A stretch of DNA of 20,929 bases from Candidatus Krumholzibacteriota bacterium (lineage in GTDB: Bacteria > Krumholzibacteriota > Krumholzibacteriia > LZORAL124-64-63), in NCBI GenBank assembly GCA_039714075.1, contig JBDLKA010000061.1, forward strand, positions 1-20,929. The letters run 5' to 3'. This document shows, piece by piece, positions 1 to 20,929 of this stretch. Position 1 is the first letter of the stretch. The number at the start of each line of letters is the position of its first letter. The notes under the pieces are model-generated. The model searched no databases, had not been told where the DNA came from, and saw only the letters and a program-made list of their open reading frames with translations. A program made the translations under genes and the position numbers.

Positions 1-363
1 CCACTTCAACGTGATCCCGTGGGGGCTGTTGAGGGATTTCCGGTGCACGGCGGTCTGTGTGCCCACCGGCGTCTCGACCACCGTTTCTACATCCGTCTCG
101 TTCAGGTCGTGCCGGACGAAGCGCACCCCGGGATGCTCGACGCGCCGGAAACAGGAATTGAAATCGTACAGGCGGGCCGAGCAACCGAGGGAGCGATAGA
201 CCTCATAGGGGTTCATGCCGGTGTAGGGTTCGGGCAGCCCCTCGCCCGAGAACATCTTGTCCTCGTACCAGCACCCTATGCGCGGCTGCCAGATGATCCT
301 GCCCTTCGATCGGCCGAACACCACCTGCCGGTGAAGCTCGGGATGATCGGGTTTCGAATCCAT
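1..363 (-). CDS. 5' part of a protein truncated by the window edge, absent from the ORF track. Possibly uroporphyrinogen decarboxylase / cobamide methyltransferase-like family
   Basis: Manual translation from ATG at 363, which overlaps the upstream TGA as TGATG. Open for 121 codons to the edge: MDSKPDHPELHRQVVFGRSKGRIIWQPRIGCWYEDK...VETVVETPVGTQTAVHRKSLNSPHGITLKW. No signal peptide. The family guess rests only on the 'ETPVG...W' pattern and is weak. Confidence 0.7.
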   Translation of the reverse strand, partial: MDSKPDHPELHRQVVFGRSKGRIIWQPRIGCWYEDKMFSGEGLPEPYTGMNPYEVYRSLGCSARLYDFNSCFRRVEHPGVRFVRHDLNETDVETVVETPVGTQTAVHRKSLNSPHGITLKW

Positions 364-4003: not shown

Positions 4004-4026
4004 TTCCGGTCTCCCCGATGTTGAAG

Positions 4027-5439: not shown

Positions 5440-5483
5440 GAAGACTCCTTTGTCTCGTCCGGCGCCGGAAAGCCGTCGCCGGG

Positions 5484-7478
5484 CTACCTGTCGATCTCGA
5501 TCTCGTCTGCGAACACCCAAGCCTTGCCTCCGGCACCCGGATGCCACTCCGGGCATTTGCTGACGTTCCGGGCGTGGACGCGGACAATCCTCGCCGGGCG
5601 GTTCGGGAACGTGAACCGGAGTTCTTCGATCCGGCACTCGGAATCGGGCTCGGGAGACCCAATATCCTTCCTGCCCACCGTCTCGAAAGCGACGCCGTCC
5701 GTGGACAGGGACACCTCGACCTCGGTCGGCAGGAAGATCCAGGAAAGCTGACTGCCCAGGAATCCGCAGGTGACCTCCTGGACGGAAATCACTTCGCCGA
5801 GGTCGATCACGGCCTCCAGATCGTCCTGCTCGAAGCCCTGCCAGGACCCGTCCTGGAAGTCGGCTGTGGCGCGGATCCCGTCCACGAGCGCTCCCTGGCC
5901 ACCGCCGGTGTACTTCGGGCTGGGCGGGGTCGCCAGGGCGATCTCCTTTCCGACGGCCAGGTGCGCGACTTCCCGCCGACGGTCCGACCTGAGGCGGTCC
6001 GGCGCGCGCACATCCCGGCCCTTTACCCCGGTGAGGCCGTCGCCGAGCTCCTCGCGCGCCTGGTCGGCGAGGTCCGAAAGTCGTTCGACGATGTCCGGGT
6101 GCCGCCCGGCCAGATCGGTCGTCTCGCCCGGATCATTCTCGAGATCGTAAAGCTCCAGGCCGGAATCCCGGGTCGCCGTCGGACCCGGCAGGCCGTCCCG
6201 CCCCGGTTCGACGCCCCGGTAGGAACGGGACCGGTGGGGAAAAAGGAGCTTGAAGCGTCCCTCCCTCACGGCCAGGAGCTTGCCCTCGAAATAATAGAGA
6301 TACCGGTTGCGGGGAGAGGCCTCCTCGGTCCCCTCGAGAAGAGGCAGCAGGTCCGTCCCGTCGATGGGGTGGGCGGGCAGGGGCCCACCGACCGCAGCCA
6401 CGATGGTGGGCAGGATGTCGATCGTGGCGGCGATCCCGCCGGCGACCGAACCTGCCGGGATGTTTGCGGGCCAGCGCATGATGCAGGGCACGCGCGCGCC
6501 GCCTTCCCACATGGTGCCCTTGCCCTCGCGCAGGGGGCCGGCCGAACCCGCGTGGTTTCCGAAGTTCAGCCACGGGCCGTTGTCGCTGATGAAGATCACC
6601 AGCGTGTTCTCGGTCAGCCCGTACCGTTCGAGCGTGTCCAGGATCCGGCCGACGGACCAGTCGATCTCCATGATTACGTCGCCGTAGGGTCCCTGTTCGC
6701 TCTTCCCCCGGAACCTGTCCGATGCGCCCAGCGGCACGTGGGGCATCGAGTGGGGCAGGTAGAGAAAGAAAGGTCGGTCCTTGTTCTTCTCGATGAACGC
6801 GACAGCCCGTTCGGTGTAGAGGGTGGTCAATCGGTCCTGGTCCTCGAGGGTCCTGATTTCGTCAACCTTCCGTTCCCCGTCGATCAGGGGGAGCTCGGGG
6901 TAGAGACTCTTGGCCGATGACGACCCTCGCTCGCCATCGTAGCCCACAGGCCACATGTCGTTCGAATAGGGAAGGCCGACGAACTCGTCGAACCCGTGCC
7001 GCAGTGGTGAGAACTGCGGCTGATGGCCCAGATGCCACTTGCCGAAGATGCCGGTGGCGTAGCCCCGCTCCTTCAACAACTCGGCGATGGTCTCCTCGTC
7101 CGGGTTCAGTCCGACGCTGGACCATGGCCCCAGCGCCCCCTTGATGCCGACCCGTTCCGCGTAGCATCCCGTCAGCAGGGAGGCCCGCGACGCGCTGCAC
7201 ACGGCCTGGGAGACGTAGAAGGACGTGAACATCATCCCCTCGGACGCCATCCGGTCGAGACGCGGTGTTTCGAAGCCGCGGGCCCCGTAGACGCCGACGT
7301 CGGCGTAGCCCTGGTCGTCGGTGAGGATGATCACGATGTTGGGCGTGGCCGGAGGATCGGCCGGCCGGTCGGCCGGGCCGCAACCCGACCAGAAACCCGC
7401 CCCTGCCGCGAGGCAGAGCATTGCCTTGGTGATCGTGGCCGGGAACACCCCGGGGAAACTATTCGACGGTGATTTCAT
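5484..7478 (-). CDS. Family S1 sulfatase (arylsulfatase A/GALNS-like), probable lipoprotein, with a C-terminal F5/8-type-like domain
   Basis: Motifs PNIVIILTDDQG, the FGly signature CSASRASLLTG, GKWHLG, SDNG, GKGTMWEGG. FWSG-C is lipobox-like. Alternative start at ATG 7421. Confidence 0.92.
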   Translation of the reverse strand: MKSPSNSFPGVFPATITKAMLCLAAGAGFWSGCGPADRPADPPATPNIVIILTDDQGYADVGVYGARGFETPRLDRMASEGMMFTSFYVSQAVCSASRASLLTGCYAERVGIKGALGPWSSVGLNPDEETIAELLKERGYATGIFGKWHLGHQPQFSPLRHGFDEFVGLPYSNDMWPVGYDGERGSSSAKSLYPELPLIDGERKVDEIRTLEDQDRLTTLYTERAVAFIEKNKDRPFFLYLPHSMPHVPLGASDRFRGKSEQGPYGDVIMEIDWSVGRILDTLERYGLTENTLVIFISDNGPWLNFGNHAGSAGPLREGKGTMWEGGARVPCIMRWPANIPAGSVAGGIAATIDILPTIVAAVGGPLPAHPIDGTDLLPLLEGTEEASPRNRYLYYFEGKLLAVREGRFKLLFPHRSRSYRGVEPGRDGLPGPTATRDSGLELYDLENDPGETTDLAGRHPDIVERLSDLADQAREELGDGLTGVKGRDVRAPDRLRSDRRREVAHLAVGKEIALATPPSPKYTGGGQGALVDGIRATADFQDGSWQGFEQDDLEAVIDLGEVISVQEVTCGFLGSQLSWIFLPTEVEVSLSTDGVAFETVGRKDIGSPEPDSECRIEELRFTFPNRPARIVRVHARNVSKCPEWHPGAGGKAWVFADEIEIDR

Positions 7479-9573
7479 CTGCGAAGATCCATGCCTTTCC
7501 TCCCGCGCCGGGATGCCAGTCGGGACAGGTCCGGATGTTTTCGGCCCGCACTCTCAGGTACCGGGCCGTGACGGCGGCCCCGGATCTTTCGACCTGGAAC
7601 TCCTTCCGGATGCGGCCTTCCCTTCTTGGTGATTCCTCGTTCCACTGCGTTTCCAGATCGCGGAAGGTCTCGCCATCGTCGGAAACGGCGAAGGAGACCG
7701 ATTTCGGCAGAAAGATCCAGTCCCCGCTGTTCTGCAGGAATCCCGCGGAGACCCTTTCCACCGGGACCGTGCGCCCCAGGTCGACCACGGCCTCCAGGTC
7801 GACCGACTCGAATCCCTGCCATGCGGTGTAGTCGGCGAGGATGTTGTCCACCGATCCGAGCCGGCCGTCGGTCAGGCCGCCGGGCCCGCCGGCGGGATAC
7901 TTCGGGGAGTAGGGGTGGCGAAGGGCGACGGCGCACCCGAGCGCGGCGTGCTCGCGCCGGTCGGCGGGCCGAGGCATGTACTTCGACTCATCGGAATCCC
8001 CGTACTGCGCCCGCAGCCGAGCTAGTTCCGCCCCGAGCTCGGCGACGACGCCGGCGTAGGCCGGATCGTCGTAGACGTTGTTCATCTCCTGTGGGTCGCG
8101 GACGAGGTCGTAGAGTTCCCACGCATCTATGTCGTGGTAGAAATGGATGAGCAGGTGGCGGTCGGTCCTGACCCCGTAATGCCGCTTCACGCCGTGGTTG
8201 GCCGGGTATTCGTAGTAGTGGTAGTAGACGGAGCGGCGCCAGTCCGCCGGCGCATCGCCGGCCAGGATTCCACGCAGGGAACGGCCCTGCATGTCTTCCG
8301 GCACGGACAATCCGGCGTAGTCGAGGATCGTCGGCGCGAGATCCAGGTTCATCACCATGTGTTCGTCGTCGGCGCGCGCGTGGATCTCGCCCGGCAGCCG
8401 GACCAGGAGCGGGATCCCGTGCGCCTCGCGGTACATGAACCGCTTGTCGAACCACCCGTGTTCGCCGAGGAAGAAACCCTGGTCCGACGTGTAGACAACC
8501 AGGGTATTCTCCGCCAGGCCTGTGCGGTCGAGATAGTCAAGAACGCGGCCGATGTTCTCGTCCACCGAAGCGACGCAGCGCAGGTAGTCCTTGATGTATC
8601 GCTGGTACTTCCACTCGTCGAGCGCGCGTCCGGTGGGCGGGTTCTTCCGGAACCGCTCGTTTATCGGGTCGTAGGCCGCGTTCCAGGCCGCCTTCTGTAC
8701 TTCGGTGAGCCGGTCGAAATCGCCCTGCCACATCTGGCGATCCAGCCGCTGACTCGCGCTTTCCCTTTCGTCCGGCGCCGGCGGCGTGAGCTTCAGGTCG
8801 TACGCGTCGAACATGTGTTCCGCGATCGACATCTCGTGACTGCGGGCGGCCTCGCTGCGGGTGTCGTAGTCGTCGAAATAAGAATCCGGGATGGGGATGT
8901 CGCCGTCCTCGTAGAGGTGGAGCTGGTCGGGTCCGGGCATCCAGTTGCGATGGGGAGCCTTGTGGTGCAGCAGCAGGCAGAAAGGCGCCTGTCCGTCACG
9001 CTCTTCGAGCCACCGCAGTCCGTCGTCGGTGATGAGATCCGTTACGTAGCCCTGCTCGCGCATCGTTTCGCCCATGCGGATGAAGTCGGGATTGTAGTAA
9101 TGACCCTGGCCGGGAAGGATGTTCCAGTAGTCGAACCCCGTCGGTTCGCTTCGCAGGTGCCACTTGCCGATGAGAGCCGTCTCGTACCCCGCTTCGCTGA
9201 GGATCCCGGGGAAGGTCGCCTGGCTACCGTCAAAGATGTCGTGGTTGGTGACCACGCCGTTCCGGTGGCCGTATTTCCCGGTCAGCAGCGTGGCCCGGCT
9301 CGGCGAACAGACGGCGTTGGTGCAAAACCCTTGGACGAACCTGACACCTTCGCTTGCGAGGCGATCGAGGTTGGGAGTACGATTGATCCGGCTCCCGTAA
9401 CAGCCCATGGCCTGGACGGTATGGTCATCGGTCATGATGACGAGGATGTTGGGCCGCTTCTCGACGGGGGCCTGACTGGGCCCGCAACCGGTAGCCGCAA
9501 GCAACAGGGCCCCGGCTCCGACCATCCCCAGGAAGGCGCGGCGACGAATGCTCCACTTTGTTGATCGGCTCAT
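7459..9573 (-). CDS. Family S1 sulfatase (GlcNAc-6-sulfatase / mucin-desulfating-like), Tat-type lipoprotein, with a C-terminal F5/8-type-like domain
   Basis: Motifs PNILVIMTDDH, CSPSRATLLTG, GKWHL, HKAPHRNW, SDQGFFLGEHGWFDKRFMY. N-terminus RRRAFLG...LAATG-C. SD AAGGAG at 9581-9586. Confidence 0.92.
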   Translation of the reverse strand: MSRSTKWSIRRRAFLGMVGAGALLLAATGCGPSQAPVEKRPNILVIMTDDHTVQAMGCYGSRINRTPNLDRLASEGVRFVQGFCTNAVCSPSRATLLTGKYGHRNGVVTNHDIFDGSQATFPGILSEAGYETALIGKWHLRSEPTGFDYWNILPGQGHYYNPDFIRMGETMREQGYVTDLITDDGLRWLEERDGQAPFCLLLHHKAPHRNWMPGPDQLHLYEDGDIPIPDSYFDDYDTRSEAARSHEMSIAEHMFDAYDLKLTPPAPDERESASQRLDRQMWQGDFDRLTEVQKAAWNAAYDPINERFRKNPPTGRALDEWKYQRYIKDYLRCVASVDENIGRVLDYLDRTGLAENTLVVYTSDQGFFLGEHGWFDKRFMYREAHGIPLLVRLPGEIHARADDEHMVMNLDLAPTILDYAGLSVPEDMQGRSLRGILAGDAPADWRRSVYYHYYEYPANHGVKRHYGVRTDRHLLIHFYHDIDAWELYDLVRDPQEMNNVYDDPAYAGVVAELGAELARLRAQYGDSDESKYMPRPADRREHAALGCAVALRHPYSPKYPAGGPGGLTDGRLGSVDNILADYTAWQGFESVDLEAVVDLGRTVPVERVSAGFLQNSGDWIFLPKSVSFAVSDDGETFRDLETQWNEESPRREGRIRKEFQVERSGAAVTARYLRVRAENIRTCPDWHPGAGGKAWIFADEITVE

Positions 9574-9712
9574 GACAACTCTCCTTTCCGAACAGAGTAG
9601 TGGTTCGGAAAGCCTGTGATCAATCGAATTGTGTCTGCGGGTCCTTCCCCGCGAGGTTGCGATACGGGGTTCGCGAGGATCAGGTTAACCCCCGACAGGA
9701 AAGGTGCCCCTG
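9574..9712. promoter_or_regulatory. Divergent intergenic region with a perfect 10-bp inverted repeat at 9584-9612
   Basis: Lies between two divergent starts. Sequence ctttccgaac-N9-gttcggaaag. Confidence 0.55.
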
Positions 9713-12106
9713 ATGAATTCATGGAAATCGGCGGTTCTGCTTCTCGTTCCCCTTCTCGCGTTGACCGTCATGTCCTGCTCAGAGGCCCCCATCGCTCTCC
9801 GTGCCGGGGGGCTCGTCTGCCACCTTGACGCGAGGGGCCACCTGACCTCCCTGGAGAACGGAAGCGCGGGGGTCGAATACCTGGCCCAGGGGCAGCCGGC
9901 TCCGTTGCTTTCGGTGAAGACGGCCGGCCGTTGGATCACCCCCACCCGGCTCGAGCCCGGCGCGGACGACTCGTTCTCGCTGCATTTCGACGACGCCGGC
10001 GTCAGCGTCGAATTCCAGGCGCTCGCCCGCGAAACCCACCTCGCTCTGGAAGTGCTGGCGGTCGAACCCGACACCCTCGTGGACGCGCTGCGCTGGGGGC
10101 CGTTCCCCGTGGCCATCGGGGACACGGTGGGCGAGATCGTGGGCGTGGTCCGCAATCCGGAATTCGCGATCGGGATCCAGGCGCTCAACGCCAAGACCAT
10201 CGGCGGGGTGATGGAGAACGAAGAGGGCTCGATCCTCAGCCGGGGCACCACGGCGGTCAAAACGGATTTCGGTTCCACGCTGAACGCCTTTTCGCTGGAC
10301 CGCTCCCACCCGCGCAGCCTCACCGTCTGGAACGAAGGGCGCGAGCGCTTTTTCCGCATGCCGGTGCCGCCCATTCCGGGCGAGACCGTGGTCGGGTCGA
10401 GGATCGCCCTTTTCGGCTGCGTCCCGGGTTCCGTGCTGGACGTGCTCGGGACCATAGAGACGACCGAGGGCCTGCCCCACCCCGAGATCGACGGCGTCTG
10501 GGCGAAGATATCTCCGGAGACGGGCCGCAGCTATCTCATCGCCCCCTTTTCCGAGGCCACCGTCGACACCTTTCTCGACGCCGTGGAGCGGGCCGGGCTG
10601 ATGACGCTCTACCACGGCGATCCCTTCGAATCCTGGGGACACTTCCGGCTGCGATCCGATCACTTCCCGAACGGAAGGGACGGCATGCGCCGCTGCGTCG
10701 AGAAGGCGACCGCGCGGGACATCCGGATCGGCGCCCACACGCTGACCGCCTTCATCACCCCCGACGACCCGTTCGTCACTCCGCGTCCGGATCCGCGCCT
10801 CGCCGAGACCGGCCGCAGCTACCTGACCGCCGATATCGACGCGGACCAGACGGCCATCGCGATCGAGGACACGTTCCACTTCGCCAACGAACGCGACAAC
10901 ACGCTGCATTGCGTGCGGATCGGGGAGGAACTTGTCCGGTACGGATCCGTCTCGCGCGAGCGGCCCTTCCGGCTCCTGGACTGTGTTCGCGGAGCGTTCG
11001 GGACGACGGCGGCTTCCCATGGCCGGGGCAAACCCGTGGGCAAGCTTCTCGATCATCCCTACGAGGTGTTCTTTCCCAACTTCGAGATGCAGGACGAGCT
11101 TGTCCGGAACCTGGCGGACTTTTTCAACGAAACGGGCATCTCGCAGATGGATTTCGACGGCCACGAGGGCTGCTTCGCCACCGGTCAGGGCGACTTCGCC
11201 AAGGAGCAATTTGCCGAGCGTTTCCACCAGCTTGCCGATCATACGGTCGTCAACGGTTCCAGCCGGTCGAGCCACTACTACTGGCACGTCTGCCACTATC
11301 TCAACTGGGGCGAGCCCTGGTACGAAGGCTTCCGGGAGTCGATGCAACAGTACCGGATCGACAACCAGGCGCTGCTCGAGCGCAACTACCTGCCCAACAT
11401 GCTCGGCTGGTACCTCCTGAAGCCCCACACGACGCTGGCGGACATCGAGTGGATGTTGGCGCGCGCGGCGGGATACGACGCCGGATTCGCCCTGGCCACG
11501 AGCATCGCGGCCATCCGGGGCAATCCCGACCTGGGAAACATCCTGGACGCCATTCGGGAGTGGGAAGACGCCCGTCGCAGCGGCGCGTTTACCCCGGACC
11601 AGAGAGAGGGATTCAGGGATCCGTCGCGGGAGTTCCATCTGCAGGCACTGCCCGAGGCCTGGCGATTCCATCCGATCGAGGGGGCGGGGCCGTTCGACCA
11701 CGAAGGCGGCCCGCGTGCGTCCGGGATGCCCGCGGCATCGACCTGGCGGTGGCGCCAGGAAGCGCCGGCCGGTCCGCTGAGGTTCGTGCTGCGCACGCAA
11801 GGCACCGCGGGAGCTGTCGGGAATCCGGTCCTGACGATCGACCACGCACACCGCCTGGAGCTTCCCGTCCGGCTCGAAGCCGGACAGTCCCTGGCCTGCG
11901 ACGGAGAGCCCGAGGTGCGCGTCTACGACGCCAAGGGACGCTATATCGAGACCGTCCCTTTGGCGGCGGAGTTGCCCCGGCTCGCCCCGGGAACACACGA
12001 GGCAACCTTCGACTGTACTTTCGAGGGGGATCCTTCCCCCCGGGCTTCACTTTCCTTCAGCGCCGTCGGCCGGCCGGAACGCGTCCCGCGTCCGGCCGGC
12101 ACATGA
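9713..12106 (+). CDS. Uncharacterised ~797-aa lipoprotein, putative glycoside hydrolase with a TIM-barrel-like core
   Basis: Lipobox LTVMS-C. Barrel-like segments LMTLYHG, IRIGAHTLTAF and FFNETGISQMDFDGHEG. Located 31 bp upstream of a GH29 gene. CDS is confident; function is inferred. Confidence 0.7.
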   Translation: MNSWKSAVLLLVPLLALTVMSCSEAPIALRAGGLVCHLDARGHLTSLENGSAGVEYLAQGQPAPLLSVKTAGRWITPTRLEPGADDSFSLHFDDAGVSVEFQALARETHLALEVLAVEPDTLVDALRWGPFPVAIGDTVGEIVGVVRNPEFAIGIQALNAKTIGGVMENEEGSILSRGTTAVKTDFGSTLNAFSLDRSHPRSLTVWNEGRERFFRMPVPPIPGETVVGSRIALFGCVPGSVLDVLGTIETTEGLPHPEIDGVWAKISPETGRSYLIAPFSEATVDTFLDAVERAGLMTLYHGDPFESWGHFRLRSDHFPNGRDGMRRCVEKATARDIRIGAHTLTAFITPDDPFVTPRPDPRLAETGRSYLTADIDADQTAIAIEDTFHFANERDNTLHCVRIGEELVRYGSVSRERPFRLLDCVRGAFGTTAASHGRGKPVGKLLDHPYEVFFPNFEMQDELVRNLADFFNETGISQMDFDGHEGCFATGQGDFAKEQFAERFHQLADHTVVNGSSRSSHYYWHVCHYLNWGEPWYEGFRESMQQYRIDNQALLERNYLPNMLGWYLLKPHTTLADIEWMLARAAGYDAGFALATSIAAIRGNPDLGNILDAIREWEDARRSGAFTPDQREGFRDPSREFHLQALPEAWRFHPIEGAGPFDHEGGPRASGMPAASTWRWRQEAPAGPLRFVLRTQGTAGAVGNPVLTIDHAHRLELPVRLEAGQSLACDGEPEVRVYDAKGRYIETVPLAAELPRLAPGTHEATFDCTFEGDPSPRASLSFSAVGRPERVPRPAGT

Positions 12107-12137
12107 GCGGACAACCGGTACACGGGAGGTTGGGATC

Positions 12138-13619
12138 ATGCGCCGGATCATTATTGCCTGGACCGCATCACTGCTTTTGGGAATGTACGCCACGGCGGGG
12201 GCGGAGGAATCCATGGAGTACGTACCGGAGACCGATCCCCTGGTCCTGGAGAAGCTGGAACAGTGGCAGGACCTGAAGTTCGGGCTCCTCATGCACTGGG
12301 CCGCGTCCAGCCAATGGGGTATCGTGGAGTCCTGGTCGCTCTCTCCCGAGGATTATGGTTGGTGTGAACGCCGCGCGGGAGACAATCCGGGGGACTACTT
12401 CGCCTACAAGCACGAATACGAGGGACTCAAGAACACCTTCAACCCGGTTGAATTCGATCCTTCCCTCTGGGCGGAAGCCGCCGCGCATGCCGGCATGCGG
12501 TATGTCGTGTTCACCACCAAGCATCATGACGGTTTCTGCATGTTCGACACCCGGGAGACGGACTACAAGGTCACCGACGAGGGTTGCCCGTTCCACAGCC
12601 ATCCACAAGCCGATATCACCCGAGCCATCTTCGACGCCTTCCGGGAAAAGGGGATGTGGACAGGCGCCTATTTCTCGAAACCCGACTGGCACAACGAGAA
12701 CTACTGGCATCCCTATTTCCCGCCCAGGGACCGCAATGTGAACTACGACCCCGAGGAGTATCCGGAGCGGTGGGACAAGTTCGTCCGGTTCACCCACAAC
12801 CAGATCATGGAACTGGCGAGCGATTACGGCCGGCTGGACATTCTCTGGCTCGACGGCGGCTGGGTCGAAAAAGCGGACCCCGAGAGGATTCGGAAGTGGT
12901 ACGAGAAGAAGATCAAGAAGACTCCTTTGGGGTTCCTCAAGCATCACTTCATCAACCAGGACATCCGCATGGACGAGCTGGTGGCCAAGGTCCGCGTGAA
13001 ACAGCCGGGCCTGATCGTGGTCGACCGGGCCGTCCACGGAAAGAACCAGAACTACCTGACGCCGGAAAACCGGGTTCCCGAGAAGGCGCTGTCCTATCCC
13101 TGGGAATCCTGCATCGTCGCCGGAGGAGGCTGGTCATGGGTACCCGATGCCCGATACAGGAGTGTTCGCGAGACGGTGCATATGCTTGTGGACATCGTCG
13201 CCAAGGGCGGAAACCTCCTGTTGAATATCGGTCCGGCCCCGGACGGTACCTGGGATGAAGGAGCCTATGAGCTGCTCCAGGGTGTGGGAGACTGGATGGC
13301 GATCAACAATGAGGCCATCTACGACACGAGAGCCATGGCCCCCTACAAGACGGGGAGGAACTGCTTCACGCGGAAGACCGACGACGGCGCCGTCTTCGCC
13401 ATCCACCTTGCCGGTGAAGGAGAGACCGGGCCGCCGGCCAGCATCGAAATCGACGGTATCGTGGTTGCGGACAACGCCCGGGTAACCATGTTGGGCGTGG
13501 AGGGCCCACTGGAGTGGAAGTTCGGGGAGCGGGGTTTGACGGTGACGATCCCATCCCACATCCGGACGGCCCCGCCCTGTGCCCATGCCTGGGTTCTGCG
13601 GATTTCACCTTCAAAGTAA
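12138..13619 (+). CDS. Alpha-L-fucosidase, GH29, secreted
   Basis: Motifs WQDLKFGLLMHW, TTKHHDGFCMFD, LWLDGGW, KGGNLLLNIGP. SD GGAGG upstream and a signal peptide. Confidence 0.93.
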   Translation: MRRIIIAWTASLLLGMYATAGAEESMEYVPETDPLVLEKLEQWQDLKFGLLMHWAASSQWGIVESWSLSPEDYGWCERRAGDNPGDYFAYKHEYEGLKNTFNPVEFDPSLWAEAAAHAGMRYVVFTTKHHDGFCMFDTRETDYKVTDEGCPFHSHPQADITRAIFDAFREKGMWTGAYFSKPDWHNENYWHPYFPPRDRNVNYDPEEYPERWDKFVRFTHNQIMELASDYGRLDILWLDGGWVEKADPERIRKWYEKKIKKTPLGFLKHHFINQDIRMDELVAKVRVKQPGLIVVDRAVHGKNQNYLTPENRVPEKALSYPWESCIVAGGGWSWVPDARYRSVRETVHMLVDIVAKGGNLLLNIGPAPDGTWDEGAYELLQGVGDWMAINNEAIYDTRAMAPYKTGRNCFTRKTDDGAVFAIHLAGEGETGPPASIEIDGIVVADNARVTMLGVEGPLEWKFGERGLTVTIPSHIRTAPPCAHAWVLRISPSK

Positions 13620-14178: not shown

Positions 14179-15054
14179 CTATCGATTGGACATCACCTCC
14201 AACAGGTTGTCGGGTTTGAGCTTATGTTTGTCTAGACCGACTTCGGCCGGCTCCAGTCCCTGGGCCAGGGCCAGCAGCTGGAAGAAGTAGACCGGCGGAA
14301 TCGTGAACCCCAGGTCGTACTTGCGGGCGATCCGGATCTGCCCCGTGTCGAACGAATCGAAGCAGGACGGGCAGATCACCCCCATGGCGTCCACCCCGGC
14401 GGCGTGCACCGACTCCAGGATGGTTTTCGTCATCTGCTCGGGAAGGTCGCAGTCCCGGCAGGATTTTCCGCAGCAGATGATCCGCTCTTCGTGGTCCACC
14501 GGTGTGGCCCCGACTGCGCGCAGCATGTCCTCGAAGATGGTCGGGTGATCCGGGTCGTCCACCCGCATGATGTCGCGCGGCTTGAGCAGATGGCAGCCGT
14601 AGTGGACGGCGATCCGGATCCCTTCCAGGGGCCGCGTGACCGAGGCCCGCACGCCTTCCAGACCTACATCGTCACGCAGAACCGTGAGCAGGTGGCGGGT
14701 GTTCACGGTGCCCTGGTATTCCAGATCGATGTGCGCCAGGCGCGCGTTGACCCGGTCCAGCAGTTCCCCTTCCTCGTTCAGAAGATGCGCCGCCTCGGCC
14801 AGGGTCTCGGTGCAGCCGCTGCAGATGGTCACGAAATCGAGTCCCGCCTGCTCGGCGATCACCAGGTTGCGCGCGGCCAGGGTCAGCCATTCCTCCTTGT
14901 GCAACGATTTGAAAAAAACCGGATCGGGGCAGCAACCCAGACCATCCAGATCCACGAGCTCGACACCCAGCTTGCCGACGGTCTTGCGGACCGCCGCCTC
15001 CATCTGGGGGTAACGTACCTGGATCATGCAGCCGGGGAAGAAGGCGAATTTCAT
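14179..15054 (-). CDS. hdrB: Heterodisulfide reductase subunit B (two CCG domains)
   Basis: Motifs FFPGC, GCCP, LAARNL, TICSGC, VHYGCHLLKP, ICCG, VICPSC..FD.GQ, QLLALA. Confidence 0.93.
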   Translation of the reverse strand: MKFAFFPGCMIQVRYPQMEAAVRKTVGKLGVELVDLDGLGCCPDPVFFKSLHKEEWLTLAARNLVIAEQAGLDFVTICSGCTETLAEAAHLLNEEGELLDRVNARLAHIDLEYQGTVNTRHLLTVLRDDVGLEGVRASVTRPLEGIRIAVHYGCHLLKPRDIMRVDDPDHPTIFEDMLRAVGATPVDHEERIICCGKSCRDCDLPEQMTKTILESVHAAGVDAMGVICPSCFDSFDTGQIRIARKYDLGFTIPPVYFFQLLALAQGLEPAEVGLDKHKLKPDNLLEVMSNR

Positions 15055-15539
15055 GTGATACCTCCTTCATCGGCCAGCAGGGTCTGGAGATCCGCCAGGT
15101 CCAGCTCCGGCAGCGGCGGCAGGCCCAGTTCCTTCCGCCGGCGATGCGTGGCCGACGTGACCATGGCGCTGCGGCCGGTGTTCAGCAACCCTTCGACCAG
15201 CCGGTCAACGCCCTCGGGAACGATGCCCCGTTCGCGCATCAGGTTCTTCAGCGCGATGATCACCTCGATGGGCTTGACGTTCTGGGGACAGCGGTCGAAG
15301 CAAGTGAAGCAGTTCGAACACTGCCATACCGGCGACGTGCCGCCGACGACCTCGTCTTCCAGCCCGTACAGAACGGCCAGCATGATCTGCCGCGGGTTGA
15401 AATCCTCGCTGAACCGGGCCGAAGGGCAATCCCCGACGCAGGCGCCGCACTGGTAGCAGTAGTTGACGCCGTCGCCTTCCAGGACCAGGCCCAGCTCTTC
15501 GCGGAAACCGTGATTGATCTTGAGCGGTTCGTCGCCCAC
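15051..15539 (-). CDS. hdrC: Heterodisulfide reductase subunit C (2x[4Fe-4S])
   Basis: Motifs CYQCGACVGDCP and WQCSNCFTCFDRCPQ. ATGA overlap with hdrB. Confidence 0.92.
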   Translation of the reverse strand: MGDEPLKINHGFREELGLVLEGDGVNYCYQCGACVGDCPSARFSEDFNPRQIMLAVLYGLEDEVVGGTSPVWQCSNCFTCFDRCPQNVKPIEVIIALKNLMRERGIVPEGVDRLVEGLLNTGRSAMVTSATHRRRKELGLPPLPELDLADLQTLLADEGGIT

Positions 15540-15542
15540 GGC

Positions 15543-15695
15543 CTACCCCTTCGCTCCGTCCACCGCTTCCAGCGGACGCACGCTGTTGGACCGGCACTCC
15601 GGACACGAACGCTCGGTCAGGACCCCCTTGGGATCATAGTCCTCGACGTAGTCGTGCCCGCAGCGCATGCATTTAAACTTCCAGGGCTTTTCCAC
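15543..15695 (-). CDS. Small (50-aa) zinc-ribbon / rubredoxin-like protein
   Basis: GTG start at 15695 after AGGAAAGGA. Translation (M)[49 protein letters not shown]. Fills the gap between hdrA and hdrC. Confidence 0.78.
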   Translation of the reverse strand: MEKPWKFKCMRCGHDYVEDYDPKGVLTERSCPECRSNSVRPLEAVDGAKG

Positions 15696-18153
15696 TGATG
15701 TCCTTTCCTGTCTTGGCCGCCTTTCTCGCCAGCCTTTCCAGCTTCTTCTGATGTTCGGCCTCGAGCACCTCCATGGTGTGCCGGACCTCCTCGGCCGTGA
15801 CGGTCCGGCGCAGCTCCTCCATCTGGTGCATGGTCTTCTGGAACTTGGGACCCTCGGCCGCACTGATCCATTCGAGCTGCAGCCGCTCGGGCCGGATGTC
15901 GCGCTTTTCGAGGTATTTCCAGAGCCGGTACACGCGCTTGACCGTCTGCCGGTTCGCATCGATGTAGTGGCAGTCGCTGAAGTGGCAGCCGGACACCAGC
16001 ACCACCGGAGCCCCCTTGCGGAAGGCGCGCAGGACGAAGGCTTCGTCCACCCGCGCCGAACACATGGTGCGGATCAGGCGGTTGCTTGCCGGGTACTGCA
16101 TCCGGCTGATGCCAGCCGTATCGCCGCCAGCGTAGCTGCACCAGTTGCAGGCGAAGACGATGACCTTTTCCCTGCTCTTGTCCGCCAGCAACGTGTCCAC
16201 CTGGCTCATGATCTGCCCGTCGGTGAAATGGCGCATGCTGATGGCCTGGAAAGCGCAGGTGGCGGCGCAGTTGCCGCAGCCGGCGCAGGCCGCCTCGACG
16301 ACCTGGGCCTTGGTTTTCGTCGCCTTGTCCGCCGTGATCGCCCCGTAGGGACAGACCGCCGTGCACAGGCCGCAGGCGTTGCACAGGTCCTCGTCCACCA
16401 CCGCGGTGATCGATTCCACCGTGACCTTGCCCGCGTTGAGCAGGGCTCCCGCACGGGCCGCCGCCGCCCCCGCCTGGGTGACCGAGTCCTTGACGTCCTT
16501 GGGCGCCTCGGCGCAGCCGGCGATATAAACGCCCTTGGTGGGTGCGTCCACGGGTTTCAGCTTGGGGTGGGCCTCCATCAGGAAACCGTCGGCGGTGGAG
16601 GAAAGCGTCAGCAGCCGGCGAACCGTCTTGTCCGCCGACTGGGGCCGCGCGCCCACCGAAAGCACGATCATGTCGAACTCGTGCTCCTCCAGTTCCTGGG
16701 AGGTCGTGTTCTCGACCGTCATGCGGAGGGCTCCCGTTTCCGGATCCTCCTCGACCTCGCCCGGGATGCCGCGGATGTACCGCACGCCGGCCTCGCGGCT
16801 TTTGTCGTACAGCTCCTCGAAGCCCTTGCCGAAGGCGCGCATGTCTATGTAGAACACCGTGCACTCGCTCTCCGGGTAGTGGTCGCGGATCAGCAGGGTG
16901 TCCTTCACCGTGTTCATGCAGCAGAAGTTGCTGCAGTAGCCGGCGCCGTCCCGCAGCGAGCGCGAGCCCACGCACTGGATGAACCCGATGCGCTTGGGTG
17001 TCGTTTGGTCTCCGGGCCGCACCAGATGCCCCTCGGTGGGACCGCCGGCACAGATCAGCCGCTCGAACTCCATGCTGGTGACAACGTTTTCGAAGCGGGT
17101 GTAGCCGTACTCGTCCATCGCCGTGGGGTCGTAGGGCTCGATGCCCGTGGCCACGACGATGGTGCCCACGTCCAGCACCACGGTTTCGTCCTGCATGTCG
17201 TAGTCGATCGCCTGCTTCTCGCACACGTCGGCGCACTTGCCGCAGGCGATGGGATTGGTGCCGAGGCACGTCTCCATGTCGATGAGGTAGGCCGAAGGCA
17301 CGGCCTGCGGGAACGGAAGATAAACCGCCCGCCGCGTGGACAGTCCCATCTGGAACTCGTCCGGATGCGCCACCGGGCAGACCTTCTCGCATTCGCCGCA
17401 GCTGTTGCAGAGCGCCTCGTCGACGTAGCGGGCCTTCTTGCGAACCGTGACCTTGAAGTTCCCCACGTAGCCGGAGACGTTCTCGACTTCGCTGAAGGTC
17501 ATCAATTTAATCAGGGGATGCCGACCGGCATCCATCATCTTGGGACCGAGTATTCATATGGAGCAGTCCATGGTCGGGAACGTCTTGTCCAATTGGGCCA
17601 TGATGCCCCCGATACTCGGTTCCTTCTCCACCAGGTAGACCGGGTGTCCCTGGTCCGCCAGGTCCATCGCCGCCTGGATGCCGGCGACGCCGCCGCCGAT
17701 CACCAGGGCCGCCTTTGTCACCGGAAAAGTCATCTCGTCCTGGGGCGTCAGCTTGGTGGCACGGGCCACGGCGCTGGCGACCAGGTCCTTGGCCTTCTCG
17801 GTCGCGGCAGCGGGGTCGTCCCCGTGCACCCACGAGCAGTGCTCGCGGAGATTGGCCATCTCCATGAGGTACGGGTTCATGCCGACGTCCCAGACGCAGC
17901 CGCGGAACGTCGGTTCGTGCATGCGGGGCGTGCAGGAGGCGATGACCACCCGCTCGAGCTTGTCCTCGGTGATGGCCTTCTTTATTTCCTCCTGACCCGG
18001 CTCCGCGCACGTGTACTTGTTCCGCACGACGGTCACGACGCCGGGCAGCGTACGCGCATACTCTTCGACGGCCGCCGTGTCGACGGTGCCGGCGATGTTG
18101 CTGCCGCAGTCGCAGACGAACACACCGATACGGGGAAGGGCTTCCTTGATCAT
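15673..18153 (-). CDS. hdrA: HdrA-MvhD fusion, 826 aa, with an in-frame UGA at codon 200 (probable selenocysteine)
   Basis: Motifs [35 protein letters not shown] (FAD), [12 protein letters not shown][TGA]ILGPKM, an inserted 2x[4Fe-4S] domain, QCVGSR..YCSNFCC and a C-terminal ferredoxin domain. These are followed by MvhD motifs [22 protein letters not shown] and WISAAEG. Both ORF-track fragments are in the same frame. Confidence 0.93.
17516..17533 (-). promoter_or_regulatory. Putative bacterial SECIS hairpin
   Basis: mRNA GGAUGCC-GGUC-GGCAUCC, a perfect 7-bp stem whose G-initiated loop begins 27 nt after the in-frame UGA (17554-17556). Confidence 0.75.
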
Positions 18154-18186: not shown

Positions 18187-19311
18187 TCAGGCTCCTCCGT
18201 TGGTCAGAGCGCCCGCCACGACGGCCGCCAGGTCCCGGATCTCCAGATCGGGAACCGACGGGTCGTCGCCGGACTGGGCGCACTTCAGGTGGATCATGCA
18301 CTTGGGGCAGGCGGTCACCAGGGTGTCGCTCCCGGTGTCCGCCGCCGCCTGGAGCAGATCCGTCTGGATGCGCTTGGATGCCTGGTTGCACGCCAGCCAG
18401 TTGCCGGCGCAGCAGACGGCGCCGCCCCGGTTGCGGGGCAGCTCCCTGAGTTCGAGACCGGGCACGGCCTGCAGGGCGGCCCGGGGTTCGTCGTATTTTT
18501 CCTGGTGCCGCCCCAGCCGGCACGGGTCCTCGAAGGTTACCGTCGTTTCCGTTTCGGCCAGGCCCAGTTCGCCGGTATGTTCGGCCACCAGTTCGGCCAC
18601 ATGAACCACCCGGCAGCCGGGCTGTCCGAAACGCCGTTGGTATTCGTTGATAAGGGTCAGTTGGCATTCCGGGCAGACAGTCACGACCAGCTGGGGTTCG
18701 GCCCGTTCGAACATCTTCACGTTCCGGGCAGCCAGCTGTTCGAAGGTATCCTCGTCGCCGGACCAGAGCTGGTCGTGGCCGCAGCACCGTTCGTCCCCAC
18801 GAACGGCCGGTGTCATACCCAGGGCGTTGAGGATGCGAACGGCCCCCTTTACCGCTTCCAGCGTCGCAACCTCCTTGTCGGCGAAGAAGACGTCGAAAAA
18901 AGGTGTGCAGCCGGTCCAGAGCAGGATCTTGCTGTCCGGATCGGTCTGCAGATCGTCATCCTCCAGCCAGTCGAGGCGCTGCTGGGGCAAGTCGGCCTGG
19001 GACTGGAGCGCCGCCATCTGGTCGATGGCGCTGCAGCGGGTGGAAGCGGGTTTCTCCCCCCGCTCGCGCGACAACCGGCGCAACGGAGGCACCGACGGAG
19101 AGATGGGCACTTCCTGCGGACAGCGCCGGTCGCACTGCATGCAGGTCAGGCAGTCCCAGACCGCCTCCGTTGTGGACACCGGGCGACCCTCGGCCAAACG
19201 GCGCATCAACCGGCGGGGCGATAGTGAATGGTTGTAACGGGCCACCGGACAGACGCTGGTGCACTTGCCGCAATCCAGACAGCGCAGAACCTGTGTGGCG
19301 GGCGCGGTCAT
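18187..19311 (-). CDS. HdrD-like Fe-S oxidoreductase (2x[4Fe-4S] plus two CCG domains)
   Basis: Motifs CLDCGKCTSVCP, CLTCMQCDRRCP, WTGC, ERCCG, VCPEC, DPCRLGR, VCCAG, TACPKC. ATG 19311 overlaps the mvhD stop (ATGA). Confidence 0.88.
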   Translation of the reverse strand: MTAPATQVLRCLDCGKCTSVCPVARYNHSLSPRRLMRRLAEGRPVSTTEAVWDCLTCMQCDRRCPQEVPISPSVPPLRRLSRERGEKPASTRCSAIDQMAALQSQADLPQQRLDWLEDDDLQTDPDSKILLWTGCTPFFDVFFADKEVATLEAVKGAVRILNALGMTPAVRGDERCCGHDQLWSGDEDTFEQLAARNVKMFERAEPQLVVTVCPECQLTLINEYQRRFGQPGCRVVHVAELVAEHTGELGLAETETTVTFEDPCRLGRHQEKYDEPRAALQAVPGLELRELPRNRGGAVCCAGNWLACNQASKRIQTDLLQAAADTGSDTLVTACPKCMIHLKCAQSGDDPSVPDLEIRDLAAVVAGALTNGGA

Positions 19312-19784
19312 GACGAACCCACCTCCACTTCGGCGCCGACGGGCCCGGCGGCAAATTCCGTGTCGCCGATTTCCCCGCGCAGCGGACTGGGACCCAGTTC
19401 GGTGATACGGGCCACGAACTCGTCGATCAATTCCGCCCAGCGGGGACCCTCGGCCGCCGACACCCATTCCAGGCGGACCCGGTCGGTTTCCAGGCCGAGC
19501 ATCCTCAGCATTTCCTTCGTGATGTCGAATTGCTTGATGGCCCAGTGGTTGCCGAATATGTAGTGGCAGTCCCCCAGGTGGCAGCCGCTGACCAGCACCC
19601 CGTCGGCCCCCATGCGGAAGGCCTGCAGCACGTGGGTGGTGTTCACGCGGCCCGAGCACATGGTGCGGATCACCCGGAAGCCGGGCGAATGGGCGATGCG
19701 GCTGGTGCCGGCGGTATCGGCGCCGGCGTAGCTGCACCAGTTGCAGGCGAAGACCACGATGCGGGGATCGAACTTGCCGCTCAT
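19308..19784 (-). CDS. mvhD: MvhD/FlpD-family [2Fe-2S] subunit
   Basis: Motifs [50 protein letters not shown] 19784 overlaps the upstream stop. Confidence 0.92.
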   Translation of the reverse strand: MSGKFDPRIVVFACNWCSYAGADTAGTSRIAHSPGFRVIRTMCSGRVNTTHVLQAFRMGADGVLVSGCHLGDCHYIFGNHWAIKQFDITKEMLRMLGLETDRVRLEWVSAAEGPRWAELIDEFVARITELGPSPLRGEIGDTEFAAGPVGAEVEVGSS

Positions 19785-20929
19785 TGCGCGTCCTCCCACT
19801 GCAGCATGGTATCCATCATTGTTTCGATCTGGCGGTCGGTGAAGTGGCGTGCCGTGATGGCACCGCTGGGACACCAGGCGACGCAGGTGCCACAGCCCTT
19901 GCAGGTAGCCTTGTTGATCGCCGCCACCGGCACGCCCAGCTCACCCGCTTCCAACGCAGGCGCCTGGAATTCGCAGATCTCCAGGCACGTGCCGCAGCCG
20001 CGGCACCGTGCGGGGTCGACCTCGGCCACCGTGGGCTCCAGTGCCAGCTTTTTCCGTACCATGATCTGGCCCGCCTTGCCGGCTGCGGCCGCGGCCTCGT
20101 TGAGGGAATCGCTGATGGCCTTGGCCCCCACCGCCGAACCGCAGACGAAGACGCCGTCCACCACCGTCTCCACGGGTCCGAGTTCGGGATGACGTTCCAT
20201 GAAGAATCCGTCGGGTCCCACAGGCACCTTGAGGATCTCGCGCAGCCGGTCGACGACTTCCTTGTCCGGCACCATGCCGACGGCCAGGACCACCAGGTCG
20301 GCGGGGACCTCGATGTCCCGGCCCAGCATCAGGTCGCGGGCCACCACGCCCGTGGCGACGGTCTTGCCGCCCACCACCTGCGGGGGCATGTCGCCGGGCA
20401 CCCGGATGAACAGGACACCTTCGCCCCGCGCCCTGCGGTACAGCTCCTCCGCACCGGGCGAGACGCACCGCATATCCCGGTACAGGACGGTGGTCTTGAC
20501 TCCGAACCGGGCCAGACCCAGAGCCTGTTCCACGGTGGCCGGGCAGCAGTAGCGGCTGCATCCCGGGTTGCAGCCCTCGCCTTCCCGGCGGGAACCCACG
20601 CACTGGATGAAAGCCGCGCTCACCGGTGGCCGACCCTCATCACCGAACAGCGGGTCGTCCGGGTTGGCCAGCCGCTTCTCCAGTTCCGTGCTGGTAACCA
20701 CGTTGCGCTTGGTCCCGTAGCCGAAGGTTCCGGTCGGATCGTGAACCCGGGCGCCGGTGGCCAGGATGATCGTGCCCGGTTCCAGGTCCTCGGCGGTCCC
20801 GGTTTTCCCTTCGGTCACCAGCTCGACCCTGAAGTTGCCCAGGTAACCGTGCACGGCGGCCAGGTCGGTGTTCAGCCTGACAGCGACTCCCGACTTCTCC
20901 AGCGGCCCGCCCAGGTGCGCCAGCATTTC
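19781..20929 (-). CDS. hdrA: HdrA-like flavoprotein, C-terminal part (5' end outside the window)
   Basis: Motifs [47 protein letters not shown], then CRGCGTCLEIC and CKGCGTCVAWCP. Confidence 0.88.
   Translation of the reverse strand, partial: EMLAHLGGPLEKSGVAVRLNTDLAAVHGYLGNFRVELVTEGKTGTAEDLEPGTIILATGARVHDPTGTFGYGTKRNVVTSTELEKRLANPDDPLFGDEGRPPVSAAFIQCVGSRREGEGCNPGCSRYCCPATVEQALGLARFGVKTTVLYRDMRCVSPGAEELYRRARGEGVLFIRVPGDMPPQVVGGKTVATGVVARDLMLGRDIEVPADLVVLAVGMVPDKEVVDRLREILKVPVGPDGFFMERHPELGPVETVVDGVFVCGSAVGAKAISDSLNEAAAAAGKAGQIMVRKKLALEPTVAEVDPARCRGCGTCLEICEFQAPALEAGELGVPVAAINKATCKGCGTCVAWCPSGAITARHFTDRQIETMMDTMLQWEDAQ

Follow-up and report, generated by a model that had tools for sequence, protein, structure and literature searches.

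An HdrA-MvhD gene apparently split by a stop codon in a Krumholzibacteriota genome is almost certainly a single, selenocysteine-decoded hdrA2

Our analysis of a 20,929-nucleotide stretch of DNA from a Candidatus Krumholzibacteriota bacterium (the whole of which we refer to as the window) indicates that an HdrA-MvhD gene apparently split by a stop codon is almost certainly one gene, decoded with selenocysteine (Sec) at an in-frame UGA, the reading of which would be aided by a downstream hairpin. Three features, all on the minus strand, make up this locus:

15673..18153, minus strand: hdrA2, a single gene of 826 codons encoding HdrA (residues 1-658) and MvhD (about 662-780), with predicted Sec at codon 200 (from translation, Pfam, NF040770 and 5odc_A/5odc_D)
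17554..17556, minus strand: UGA as predicted selenocysteine U200, the second position of C197-S-I-U200 (from translation, the Cys/TGA column and the 5odc_A alignment)
17516..17533, minus strand: bacterial SECIS hairpin with a 7-bp stem and a GGUC loop, which also encodes (M)DAGRHP (from folding, conservation, pair counts and motif counts)

Translation of the minus strand from 18153 to 15673 gives one frame with no frameshift, where the TGA at 17556..17554 is the only stop before the terminal TAA, and read-through of this TGA yields 826 residues. The codon lies in the context ATG GAC TGC TCC ATA TGA ATA CTC GGT CCC AAG ATG, which agrees with the initial annotation, where DCSI*ILGPKM was read without a frameshift and an 826-aa HdrA-MvhD protein with a CxxU motif was proposed. 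This protein scores 1164.7 bits against the NCBIfam model NF040770 (HdrA2; cut-off 1100), the match extending over model positions 1-775 of 777. Over their full length, residues 7-658 align with the HdrA structure 5odc_A (E 3.8e-232), and residues 662-777 with MvhD 5odc_D (E 2.7e-39); Pfam places FAD at 150-199, Fer4 at 584-640 and FlpD at 664-780 (5e-43). We therefore see the architecture expected of HdrA2, i.e., an N-terminal Cys-cluster domain, an FAD/thioredoxin-reductase-like core, ferredoxin domains and a C-terminal MvhD fusion, and by Pfam, 5odc and NF040770 the homology to HdrA and MvhD is complete and flanks the TGA on either side.

The TGA occupies the position of the second Cys in the DCxxC motif, and U200 aligns with Cys197 of the solved HdrA structure 5odc_A. 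The initial annotation had stated that Sec-containing HdrA is known and that a conserved motif lies at this site, and published sources bear this out: Sec197 is published at the equivalent site of HdrA of Methanococcus maripaludis (PMC13518236), a table in PMC13188914 catalogues NF040770 as a selenoprotein with motif CxxU, and Sec-HdrA has been on record in bacteria since 2006 (PMC1794560). An alignment of homologues, expected from the outset to hold only Cys or TGA at this column, does so: across 80 aligned related gene copies, taken from 78 of 80 loci of public genomes, the codon is TGA in 68, TGC in 8 and TGT in 4, with nothing else observed. Eight orthologues at 66-94% identity were found among 40 relatives, and each of the eight has exactly one TGA, in the same column. 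A UxxU variant, with a second UGA, was also observed. The source genome also encodes a Cys homologue, on a different contig (C34). Full-length database proteins of 802-865 aa occur at 64-68% identity, and the four records fetched print C at the site, a letter that does not distinguish U from C in the source.

Could the TGA instead result from faulty sequencing or assembly, or have arisen recently from TGC or TGT as an inactivating mutation that left a pseudogene? TGC becomes TGA by one base change, and the bin is fragmented into 260 contigs. We nevertheless regard this as extremely unlikely, since independent assemblies contain the identical TGA in 76 distinct sequences, the flanks on both sides are still open and conserved, and both the TGA and the hairpin recur in a paralogue of the same genome. 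In addition, the contig lay-out of four runs (Logan contigs rather than raw reads) contains no codon variant, nor any variant between 17507 and 17591, among the rows listed. The stretch or its close relatives occur in Logan contigs of marine and sediment metagenomes and of libraries recorded as RNA; such contigs are not evidence of transcription or translation and do not exclude rare variants.

A true stop at this codon would give two proteins, one of 199 aa from the N-terminal part and one of 621 aa that restarts at the ATG at 17538. Exactly these two open reading frames are listed under table 11 (17554..18153 and 15673..17538), and public gene callers yield the same kind of piece: among the matches listed, all 13 database proteins of at least 87% identity are fragments of 607-625 aa, as the initial annotation had anticipated of annotation pipelines, and the two that were fetched both begin at the Met after the TGA. 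Any Sec gene is also expected to yield some truncated product under selenium limitation. Against this, the break would interrupt the thioredoxin-reductase domain that binds FAD, at a position where all homologues lacking the TGA have Cys; the ATG at 17538 has no Shine-Dalgarno motif before it in the sequence; the TGA is retained in 68 of the 80 gene copies; and it is followed by a SECIS hairpin fixed at synonymous sites. A true stop is thus very improbable, and we favor decoding of the codon as Sec.

The hairpin GGAUGCC-GGUC-GGCAUCC, with its loop 27 nt downstream of the UGA as first described, was confirmed: the stem occupies 17533..17527 (GGATGCC) and 17522..17516 (GGCATCC), and the loop 17526..17523 (GGTC). 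It starts 20 nt after the UGA, with exactly 27 nt between the A of the UGA and the first base of the loop. A folding and bacterial SECIS check, which had been suggested for this element, showed that it is present in the minimum-free-energy (MFE) fold, with -11.5 kcal/mol for the hairpin alone. The legend to Fig. 2 of PMC13188914 gives the bSECIS model as a loop of 3-9 nt, a stem of 4-16 bp, a G within the first two loop positions, a spacing of 16-37 nt and an MFE of -7.5 kcal/mol or lower, and the hairpin agrees with the model throughout (4-nt GGUC loop, 7-bp stem, 27-nt spacing, -11.5 kcal/mol). Fold stability was set aside as support, since the 71-nt region is not distinct from its shuffles in this DNA of 62% G+C (z = -1.36; 20 of 200 shuffles equally stable).

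Conservation of the hairpin is more informative. Its codons GAT, GGT and CAT are each found in 76 of 76 distinct sequences, i.e., the synonymous sites are fixed, whereas beyond the hairpin these amino acids vary freely in codon (Asp at -4 is GAC in 61 and GAT in 15; four codons occur for Gly at +3, 22/13/21/20). Of the seven stem pairs, five are invariant, and so fit sequence conservation as well as structure. Only one pair covaries, and this change is coupled to an Ala/Val change: pair 59-66 is C-G in 39 sequences, U-A in 28 and U-G in 9, with no mismatches and never C-A. Paired cells make up 99.1%, versus 21-57% with the partner slid, and a measure of pairs with a change on both sides is equalled by 363 of 500 shuffles, controls that overstate because the 76 sequences are related by descent. 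The motif GATG[CT]CGGT[CA]G[GA]CATC has only two occurrences in the genome (4.06 Mb), both 24 nt downstream of the in-frame TGA of an HdrA gene, and is found in none of 25 Cys homologues with TGC or TGT in place of the TGA. These 18 nt are near letter-for-letter constant, with one compensatory pair, in sequences labelled from more than 10 phyla. Conservation and covariation, unlike stability alone, support the hairpin as more than chance. A search of the whole window against Rfam at gathering thresholds gave no match, and a search of 17350..17700 at E <= 10 gave three chance-level matches, with no SECIS family among them, so that no curated RNA family covers this hairpin.

The Sec machinery, implied by the initial annotation, is present in the source genome, with all components above curated cut-offs: tRNA-Sec (68.5 bits; called as tRNA-SeC with anticodon tca by ARAGORN), selA (448 bits), selB (327.8 bits, or 354.7 with neighbours) and selD (363.8 bits), the last itself containing Sec, with its own TGA at G-U-A-A-K. 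These genes sit on contigs other than that of the window, in a bin 92% complete with 4.3% contamination, and selA was found in 40 of 41 genomes of the class. TGA is also the ordinary and commonest stop, ending 6 of 11 genes in the window and 817 of 1433 long frames. For this reason, in G+C-rich DNA, an open reading frame listing with TGA read as U, tried on the locus of a relative, was uninformative and gave frames of thousands of codons.

These data bear on whether the UGA is read as Cys, Trp or Gly, by near-cognate suppression or by genome-wide reassignment. Cys at this site would be fully functional, as Cys homologues such as that on C34 illustrate, and yet TGA is the main stop and serves as such in ATGA stop/start overlaps in the same operon, the Sec machinery is complete, and a hairpin of the SelB-binding type is kept only behind TGA and never behind TGC or TGT. 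We consider such a reading highly unlikely. Recoding of the UGA as Sec, as originally proposed, is instead supported by the column, the SECIS covariation and the machinery, and from these sequence data we infer that selenium is incorporated at codon 200.

Detailed examination of the region around hdrA2 identified further genes of the same operon:

14179..15054, minus strand: hdrB-like subunit with two CCG domains (Pfam CCG in two stretches; TIGR03288 303.4 bits, below the cut-off of 345.15)
15051..15539, minus strand: hdrC-like iron-sulfur subunit (Pfam Fer4_8; TIGR03290 103.9 bits, below the cut-off of 160)
18187..19311, minus strand: fused HdrC/HdrB-like (GlpC/HdrD/BamD-like) protein (Pfam Fer4_8 and CCG)
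19308..19784, minus strand: stand-alone MvhD-like protein, Cys type (VhuD model 113.8 bits, below the cut-off of 215)
19781..20929, minus strand: C-terminal part of a second predicted HdrA selenoprotein, a double HdrA of roughly 1030 aa with HdrA-like domains, running off the window

The hdrB- and hdrC-like genes adjoin hdrA2 and are clear homologues that score below the equivalog cut-offs. The fused HdrC/HdrB-like gene starts at a normal ATG at 19311, which is preceded by GGAGG and overlaps the preceding stop as ATGA; the idea that the 516-aa open reading frame at 18187..19737 contains a recoded stop or begins further upstream was rejected on these grounds. The stand-alone MvhD-like protein matches residues 656-776 of the 826-aa query, and its ATG overlaps the stop of the preceding gene. 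A TGA inside a match at 19727..20785 was likewise rejected as an extra Sec site, being the terminal stop of its gene, overlapped by the next ATG. The second HdrA gene continues on contig C172, whose last 99 nt match those of the window in reverse complement, and has its own Sec TGA with an identical hairpin at C172:3039..3078. A 2-oxoacid:ferredoxin oxidoreductase is encoded upstream. The host, an uncultured bacterium, is rich in sulfatase and fucosidase genes.

During translation, SelB with Sec-tRNA(Sec) would bind the hairpin 20 nt downstream of the UGA and deliver Sec to the ribosome at codon 200, in competition with release factor 2. The product would bear a Cys197-x-x-Sec200 pair beside the bifurcating FAD of the thioredoxin-reductase-like domain; homology with HdrA of methanogens and with BamE suggests that the pair probably cycles between states as a selenylsulfide, helping to relay or gate electrons. 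Sec-HdrA2 would work with the adjoining HdrC- and HdrB-like subunits. CoM-S-S-CoB is very unlikely to be the substrate in this bacterium, and another acceptor is likely, since the host is bacterial and the stretches read show no sign of methanogenesis. One possible but doubtful extension is that Sec-HdrA2 forms one arm of a single operon-encoded machine, made up of a four-subunit 2-oxoacid (2-oxoglutarate-like):ferredoxin oxidoreductase, a BamE-like CxxU double HdrA, MvhD, an HdrD-like protein and HdrA2-HdrC-HdrB. In such a machine, two bifurcating flavins, each gated by a selenylsulfide, might link 2-oxoacid/ferredoxin chemistry to a disulfide or some other acceptor in bacteria of many phyla that are not methanogens, and the SECIS, nearly identical between the two genes and between phyla, might reflect spread of the whole cassette.

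Because gene callers fragment hdrA2, reconstructions of the metabolism of these sediment bacteria overlook an intact, electron-bifurcating HdrA and underestimate how far the bacteria depend on selenium. The hairpin offers a clear and densely sampled case of a bacterial SECIS, and the aligned set could seed a covariance model for automatic detection of split hdrA genes.

The family to which this protein belongs, its Sec site and the CxxU motif are already catalogued, and our result is a sound correction of annotation rather than new in kind. The protein falls above the cut-off of the same family model as the known Sec-HdrA proteins (NF040770, CxxU, M. maripaludis Sec197) and has Sec predicted at the same position. 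Bacterial members of that family occur in Deltaproteobacteria and Clostridia; the host here is not a methanogen, a sulfate reducer or a syntroph. The HdrA2 of Methanosarcina is a Cys form that uses F420H2/ferredoxin and CoM-S-S-CoB. In the classification of PMC12054007, this type Ia HdrA of HdrA2B2C2 likewise has a C-terminal MvhD fusion with hdrB and hdrC alongside, although the hdrB- and hdrC-like genes of the window score below equivalog cut-offs. The SECIS of archaea is located in the 3′ UTR (PMC13188914), in contrast to the in-frame bacterial hairpin here.

The genes just upstream of hdrA2, i.e., a double HdrA with CxxU near its N-terminus, a stand-alone MvhD-like protein and a fused HdrC/B-like protein, match in composition the BamE/BamF/BamD module of class II benzoyl-CoA reductase (a fused HdrA dimer, an MvhD-like adaptor and an HdrD-like subunit). 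In BamE, the equivalent Cys59-Cys62 pair is described as a disulfide beside the bifurcating FAD (bioRxiv 10.64898/2026.04.10.717634). This likeness concerns the neighbouring genes and not hdrA2; in the stretches examined, neither BamB/BamC nor BamGHI genes were seen, and the 2-oxoacid:ferredoxin oxidoreductase lies upstream in their place. The hairpin itself resembles the E. coli fdhF-type SECIS and the bSECISearch consensus, which are likewise stem-loops within the coding region, directly 3′ of the UGA, whose small apical loop begins with G. Its GGUC loop is the same tetranucleotide as that of fdhF and lies about 9 nt further from the UGA than in fdhF.

The minus strand around the stop reads ATG GAC TGC TCC ATA TGA ATA CTC GGT CCC AAG ATG, with the TGA at 17556..17554. 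Translation table 11 splits the hdrA2 frame into two ORFs, 17554..18153 (199 aa) and 15673..17538 (621 aa). With TGA read as U, 18153..15673 becomes a single frame of 826 residues in which this codon is the sole internal stop, and translation thus bears out the initial annotation, which had proposed that an in-frame UGA joins two ORFs into one 826-aa protein. The full product passes the NCBIfam model NF040770, "CoB-CoM heterodisulfide reductase HdrA2" (1164.7 bits, cut-off 1100), and Pfam places the start of an FAD-binding domain at residues 150-199, ferredoxin domains at 584-640 and an MvhD/FlpD domain at 664-780 (5e-43). Among solved structures, HdrA of Methanothermococcus thermolithotrophicus (5odc_A, E 3.8e-232) aligns end to end with residues 7-658, and MvhD (5odc_D, 2.7e-39) matches residues 662-777. 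Homology continues unbroken through the TGA, and the alignment partner of codon 200 (U200) is Cys197 of 5odc_A, i.e., the second Cys of D-C-S-I-C.

Orthologues of hdrA2 are present in 8 of 40 relative genomes (66-94% identity), each with exactly one internal TGA, and in all 8 the TGA occupies the same column (DCSI*ILGP). A paralogue with 45-46% identity over query residues ~138-570, found in the same genome and in 6 relatives, also has TGA at this column, and the remaining HdrA homologues in these genomes have Cys; this tally leaves out second matches in the same loci (33-43% identity), which lie on a different, CxxC-less domain or a neighboring gene and show G, E, A, Q or T at the column. In a wider sample of 80 public-genome loci, 78 yielded 80 aligned copies (2 loci had no usable match), and the column codon was TGA in 68, TGC in 8 and TGT in 4, so that only Cys or TGA occurs, as had been anticipated. 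The TGA-bearing public records are labeled, as deposited, KSB1, Zixibacteria, Chloroflexota, Ignavibacteria, Acidobacteriota, Desulfobacteraceae, Phycisphaerae and Latescibacterota, among others, and the nearest carry the deposited labels "uncultured Fibrobacteraceae" or "uncultured bacterium." The genome also encodes, at C34:6465-8225 (-), an HdrA paralogue of the Cys type (DCAAC, 38% identity) that lacks the hairpin described below, so that Sec and Cys forms coexist within it. In one public locus labeled Candidatus Stahlbacteria (L094:2441-2536, +), HdrA reads D-TGA-A-I-TGA, i.e., both Cys of the CxxC are TGA, and both codons are in SECIS range of one hairpin, whose loop is GGTA; this UxxU may form a diselenide, in a single sequence that could be an error.

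Downstream of the hdrA2 TGA, the hairpin previously described as perfect was found with its arms, loop and spacing as claimed, 27 nt separating the A of UGA from the first loop base:

17533..17527, minus strand, 5' arm GGATGCC
17526..17523, minus strand, loop GGTC
17522..17516, minus strand, 3' arm GGCATCC

The bacterial SECIS model set out in the Fig. 2 legend of a published review (PMC13188914) has a 3-9 nt loop with G in its first two positions, a 4-16 bp stem, 16-37 nt spacing and an MFE <= -7.5, and the hdrA2 hairpin agrees with all four criteria of that legend, in keeping with its earlier description as SECIS-like. Folding places the hairpin in the minimum-free-energy structure of the region (-11.5 kcal/mol in isolation), with a regional folding energy that is ordinary for its base composition (z = -1.36, reached by 20 of 200 shuffles), and stability alone is therefore no argument for the hairpin. 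Rfam contained no family matching it.

Of 84 segments spanning the TGA (96 nt each), 76 were distinct, and their hairpins took the following forms.

Hairpin forms among the 76 distinct segments
GGATGCC-GGTC-GGCATCC: 33
GGATGTC-GGTC-GACATCC: 27
GGATGTC-GGTC-GGCATCC: 9
first stem base lost: 5 (CGATGCC 3, TGATGCC 2)
loop GGTA: 2

Within the hairpin, synonymous positions are fixed (Asp GAT, Gly GGT and His CAT, each 76/76), whereas identical amino acids outside it vary (Asp -4 GAC 61 and GAT 15; Gly +3 four codons, 22/13/21/20). In the alignment of these segments, 99.1% of hairpin cells are paired, compared with 21-57% after shifting the 3' partner by 1-3 columns. The sixth stem pair is C-G in 39, U-A in 28, U-G in 9 and mismatched in none; at this pair an Ala/Val replacement goes with a synonymous change in an Arg codon. 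Neither the observed covariation score nor the percentage paired was reached by any of 500 shuffles, and the measure "pairs with a change on both sides" was matched by 363 of 500, in an alignment where five stem pairs are invariant and the sequences are related. The hairpin motif occurs in none of 25 distinct Cys homologues, and genome-wide it occurs only twice in 4.06 Mb, both copies lying 24 nt downstream of an HdrA TGA. The folding energy of the 45-nt downstream stretch averages -12.8 kcal/mol for the 76 Sec sequences and -8.7 for the 25 Cys homologues.

Assembled contigs of four public marine or sediment runs, aligned to the window at 85% likeness, cover the stretch, and none of the 40 differences listed, beyond which the comparison has 184 further rows, falls between 17507 and 17591; this comparison provides an absence of contrary signal only. 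Summed depth is highest over 17533..17573 (peak region 17492-17614), i.e., over the TGA and hairpin, a nearly invariant segment that many different organisms in the sampled communities apparently have in common. Some of the libraries are recorded as RNA, a label that is no proof of transcription.

The Sec machinery that a UGA-decoding host was expected to carry is present in full in this genome (260 contigs, 92% complete, 4.3% contamination, with the window an entire contig): tRNA-Sec (68.5 bits, cut-off 47; anticodon TCA by ARAGORN), selA (448.1 bits, cut-off 267.9), selB (327.8 bits, or 354.7 including a C-terminal piece, cut-off 242.25) and selD (363.8 bits, cut-off 125; C31:20863-21777, -). 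The selD gene has an in-frame TGA at G-U-A-A-K, the UxxK site tabulated for SelD in the review (PMC13188914), and appears to be a selenoprotein gene itself, with a possible small G-rich-loop hairpin nearer to the UGA than in hdrA2. In 40 of 41 sampled genomes of the class selA scores above its cut-off, the single miss being 88% complete, so the Sec trait is a property of the lineage and not a binning accident. Elsewhere TGA is an ordinary stop: it terminates 6 of the 11 confident window genes and, genome-wide, 817 of 1433 stop-to-stop frames with at least 500 codons.

The hdrA2 gene lies within a tightly packed minus-strand operon:

19781..20929, minus strand, double HdrA, C-terminal part
19308..19784, minus strand, MvhD-like gene
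18187..19311, minus strand, fused HdrC/B-like gene, with an ATGA overlap and GGAGG upstream
15673..18153, minus strand, hdrA2
15051..15539, minus strand, hdrC-like gene
14179..15054, minus strand, hdrB-like gene

Contig C172 of the same genome ends in 99 nt that match, base for base, the reverse complement of the final 99 nt of the window, and we therefore place the beginning of the double HdrA on C172, where it continues at ~2840-4907 (+) with its own TGA (3039-3041) and an 18-nt hairpin that matches the hdrA2 one exactly. This gene encodes the second predicted selenoprotein of the operon. Its product is ~1030 aa, BamE-like and of type II, with CxxU ~66 codons from the start. Directly upstream of it (C172:1-2881), a 2-oxoacid:ferredoxin oxidoreductase is encoded by genes for its delta, alpha, beta and gamma subunits. 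With 551 bits, the alpha subunit clears the NF006412 cut-off of 411; the closest specific models are of 2-oxoglutarate type, and their cut-offs are not reached. The order of oxidoreductase and Hdr modules is kept in a relative genome, G011 (oxidoreductase at L139:4703-7282). The rest of the window (363-13619) is a polysaccharide-degradation neighborhood with two sulfatases, two alpha-L-fucosidases and a DUF4838 protein by Pfam, which gave no match for the long frames at 4018-5751 (+) and 9704-12276 (three overlapping, 739-800 aa).

The family model, the architecture, the TGA/Cys column, the SECIS model, the hairpin's conservation and the Sec genes all place hdrA2 in this selenoprotein family; the adjacent hdrB- and hdrC-like genes match TIGR03288 (303.4 bits, cut-off 345.15) and TIGR03290 (103.9 bits, cut-off 160) as clear homologues with scores under the equivalog cut-offs. 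In bacteria, SelB brings Sec to the ribosome as Sec-tRNA(Sec) while bound to the apical portion of a SECIS that follows the UGA closely on its 3' side. The hairpin at 17533..17516 would act as such a SelB-binding element for the hdrA2 UGA, and the product would carry C197-x-x-U200.

HdrA has been a recorded bacterial selenoprotein family since 2006, in a study that also describes hdrA-hdrA fusions and multi-selenoprotein operons (PMC1794560), and in the table of a 2026 review it appears as NF040770, motif CxxU (PMC13188914); with family and motif already recorded, only this instance is new here. A 2025 survey reports that gene callers truncate hdrA at Sec codons (PMC12054007). The suspicion that pipelines would split this gene proved justified, in that 13 of 13 database proteins at least 87% identical to hdrA2, among the matches listed, are fragments of 607-625 aa, and both of those retrieved (2 of 13) start at the Met following the TGA. 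In the M. maripaludis super-assembly, density between the A3 cluster and FAD is held by a Cys and Sec197, for which its authors propose a reversible thiol-selenol relay in a role they deem unresolved (PMC13518236), and in BamE, a fused-HdrA subunit, one conformational state has the equivalent Cys59-Cys62 joined as a disulfide beside the bifurcating FAD (bioRxiv 10.64898/2026.04.10.717634). By homology with these systems, U200 and C197 most likely pair as a selenylsulfide next to the flavin.
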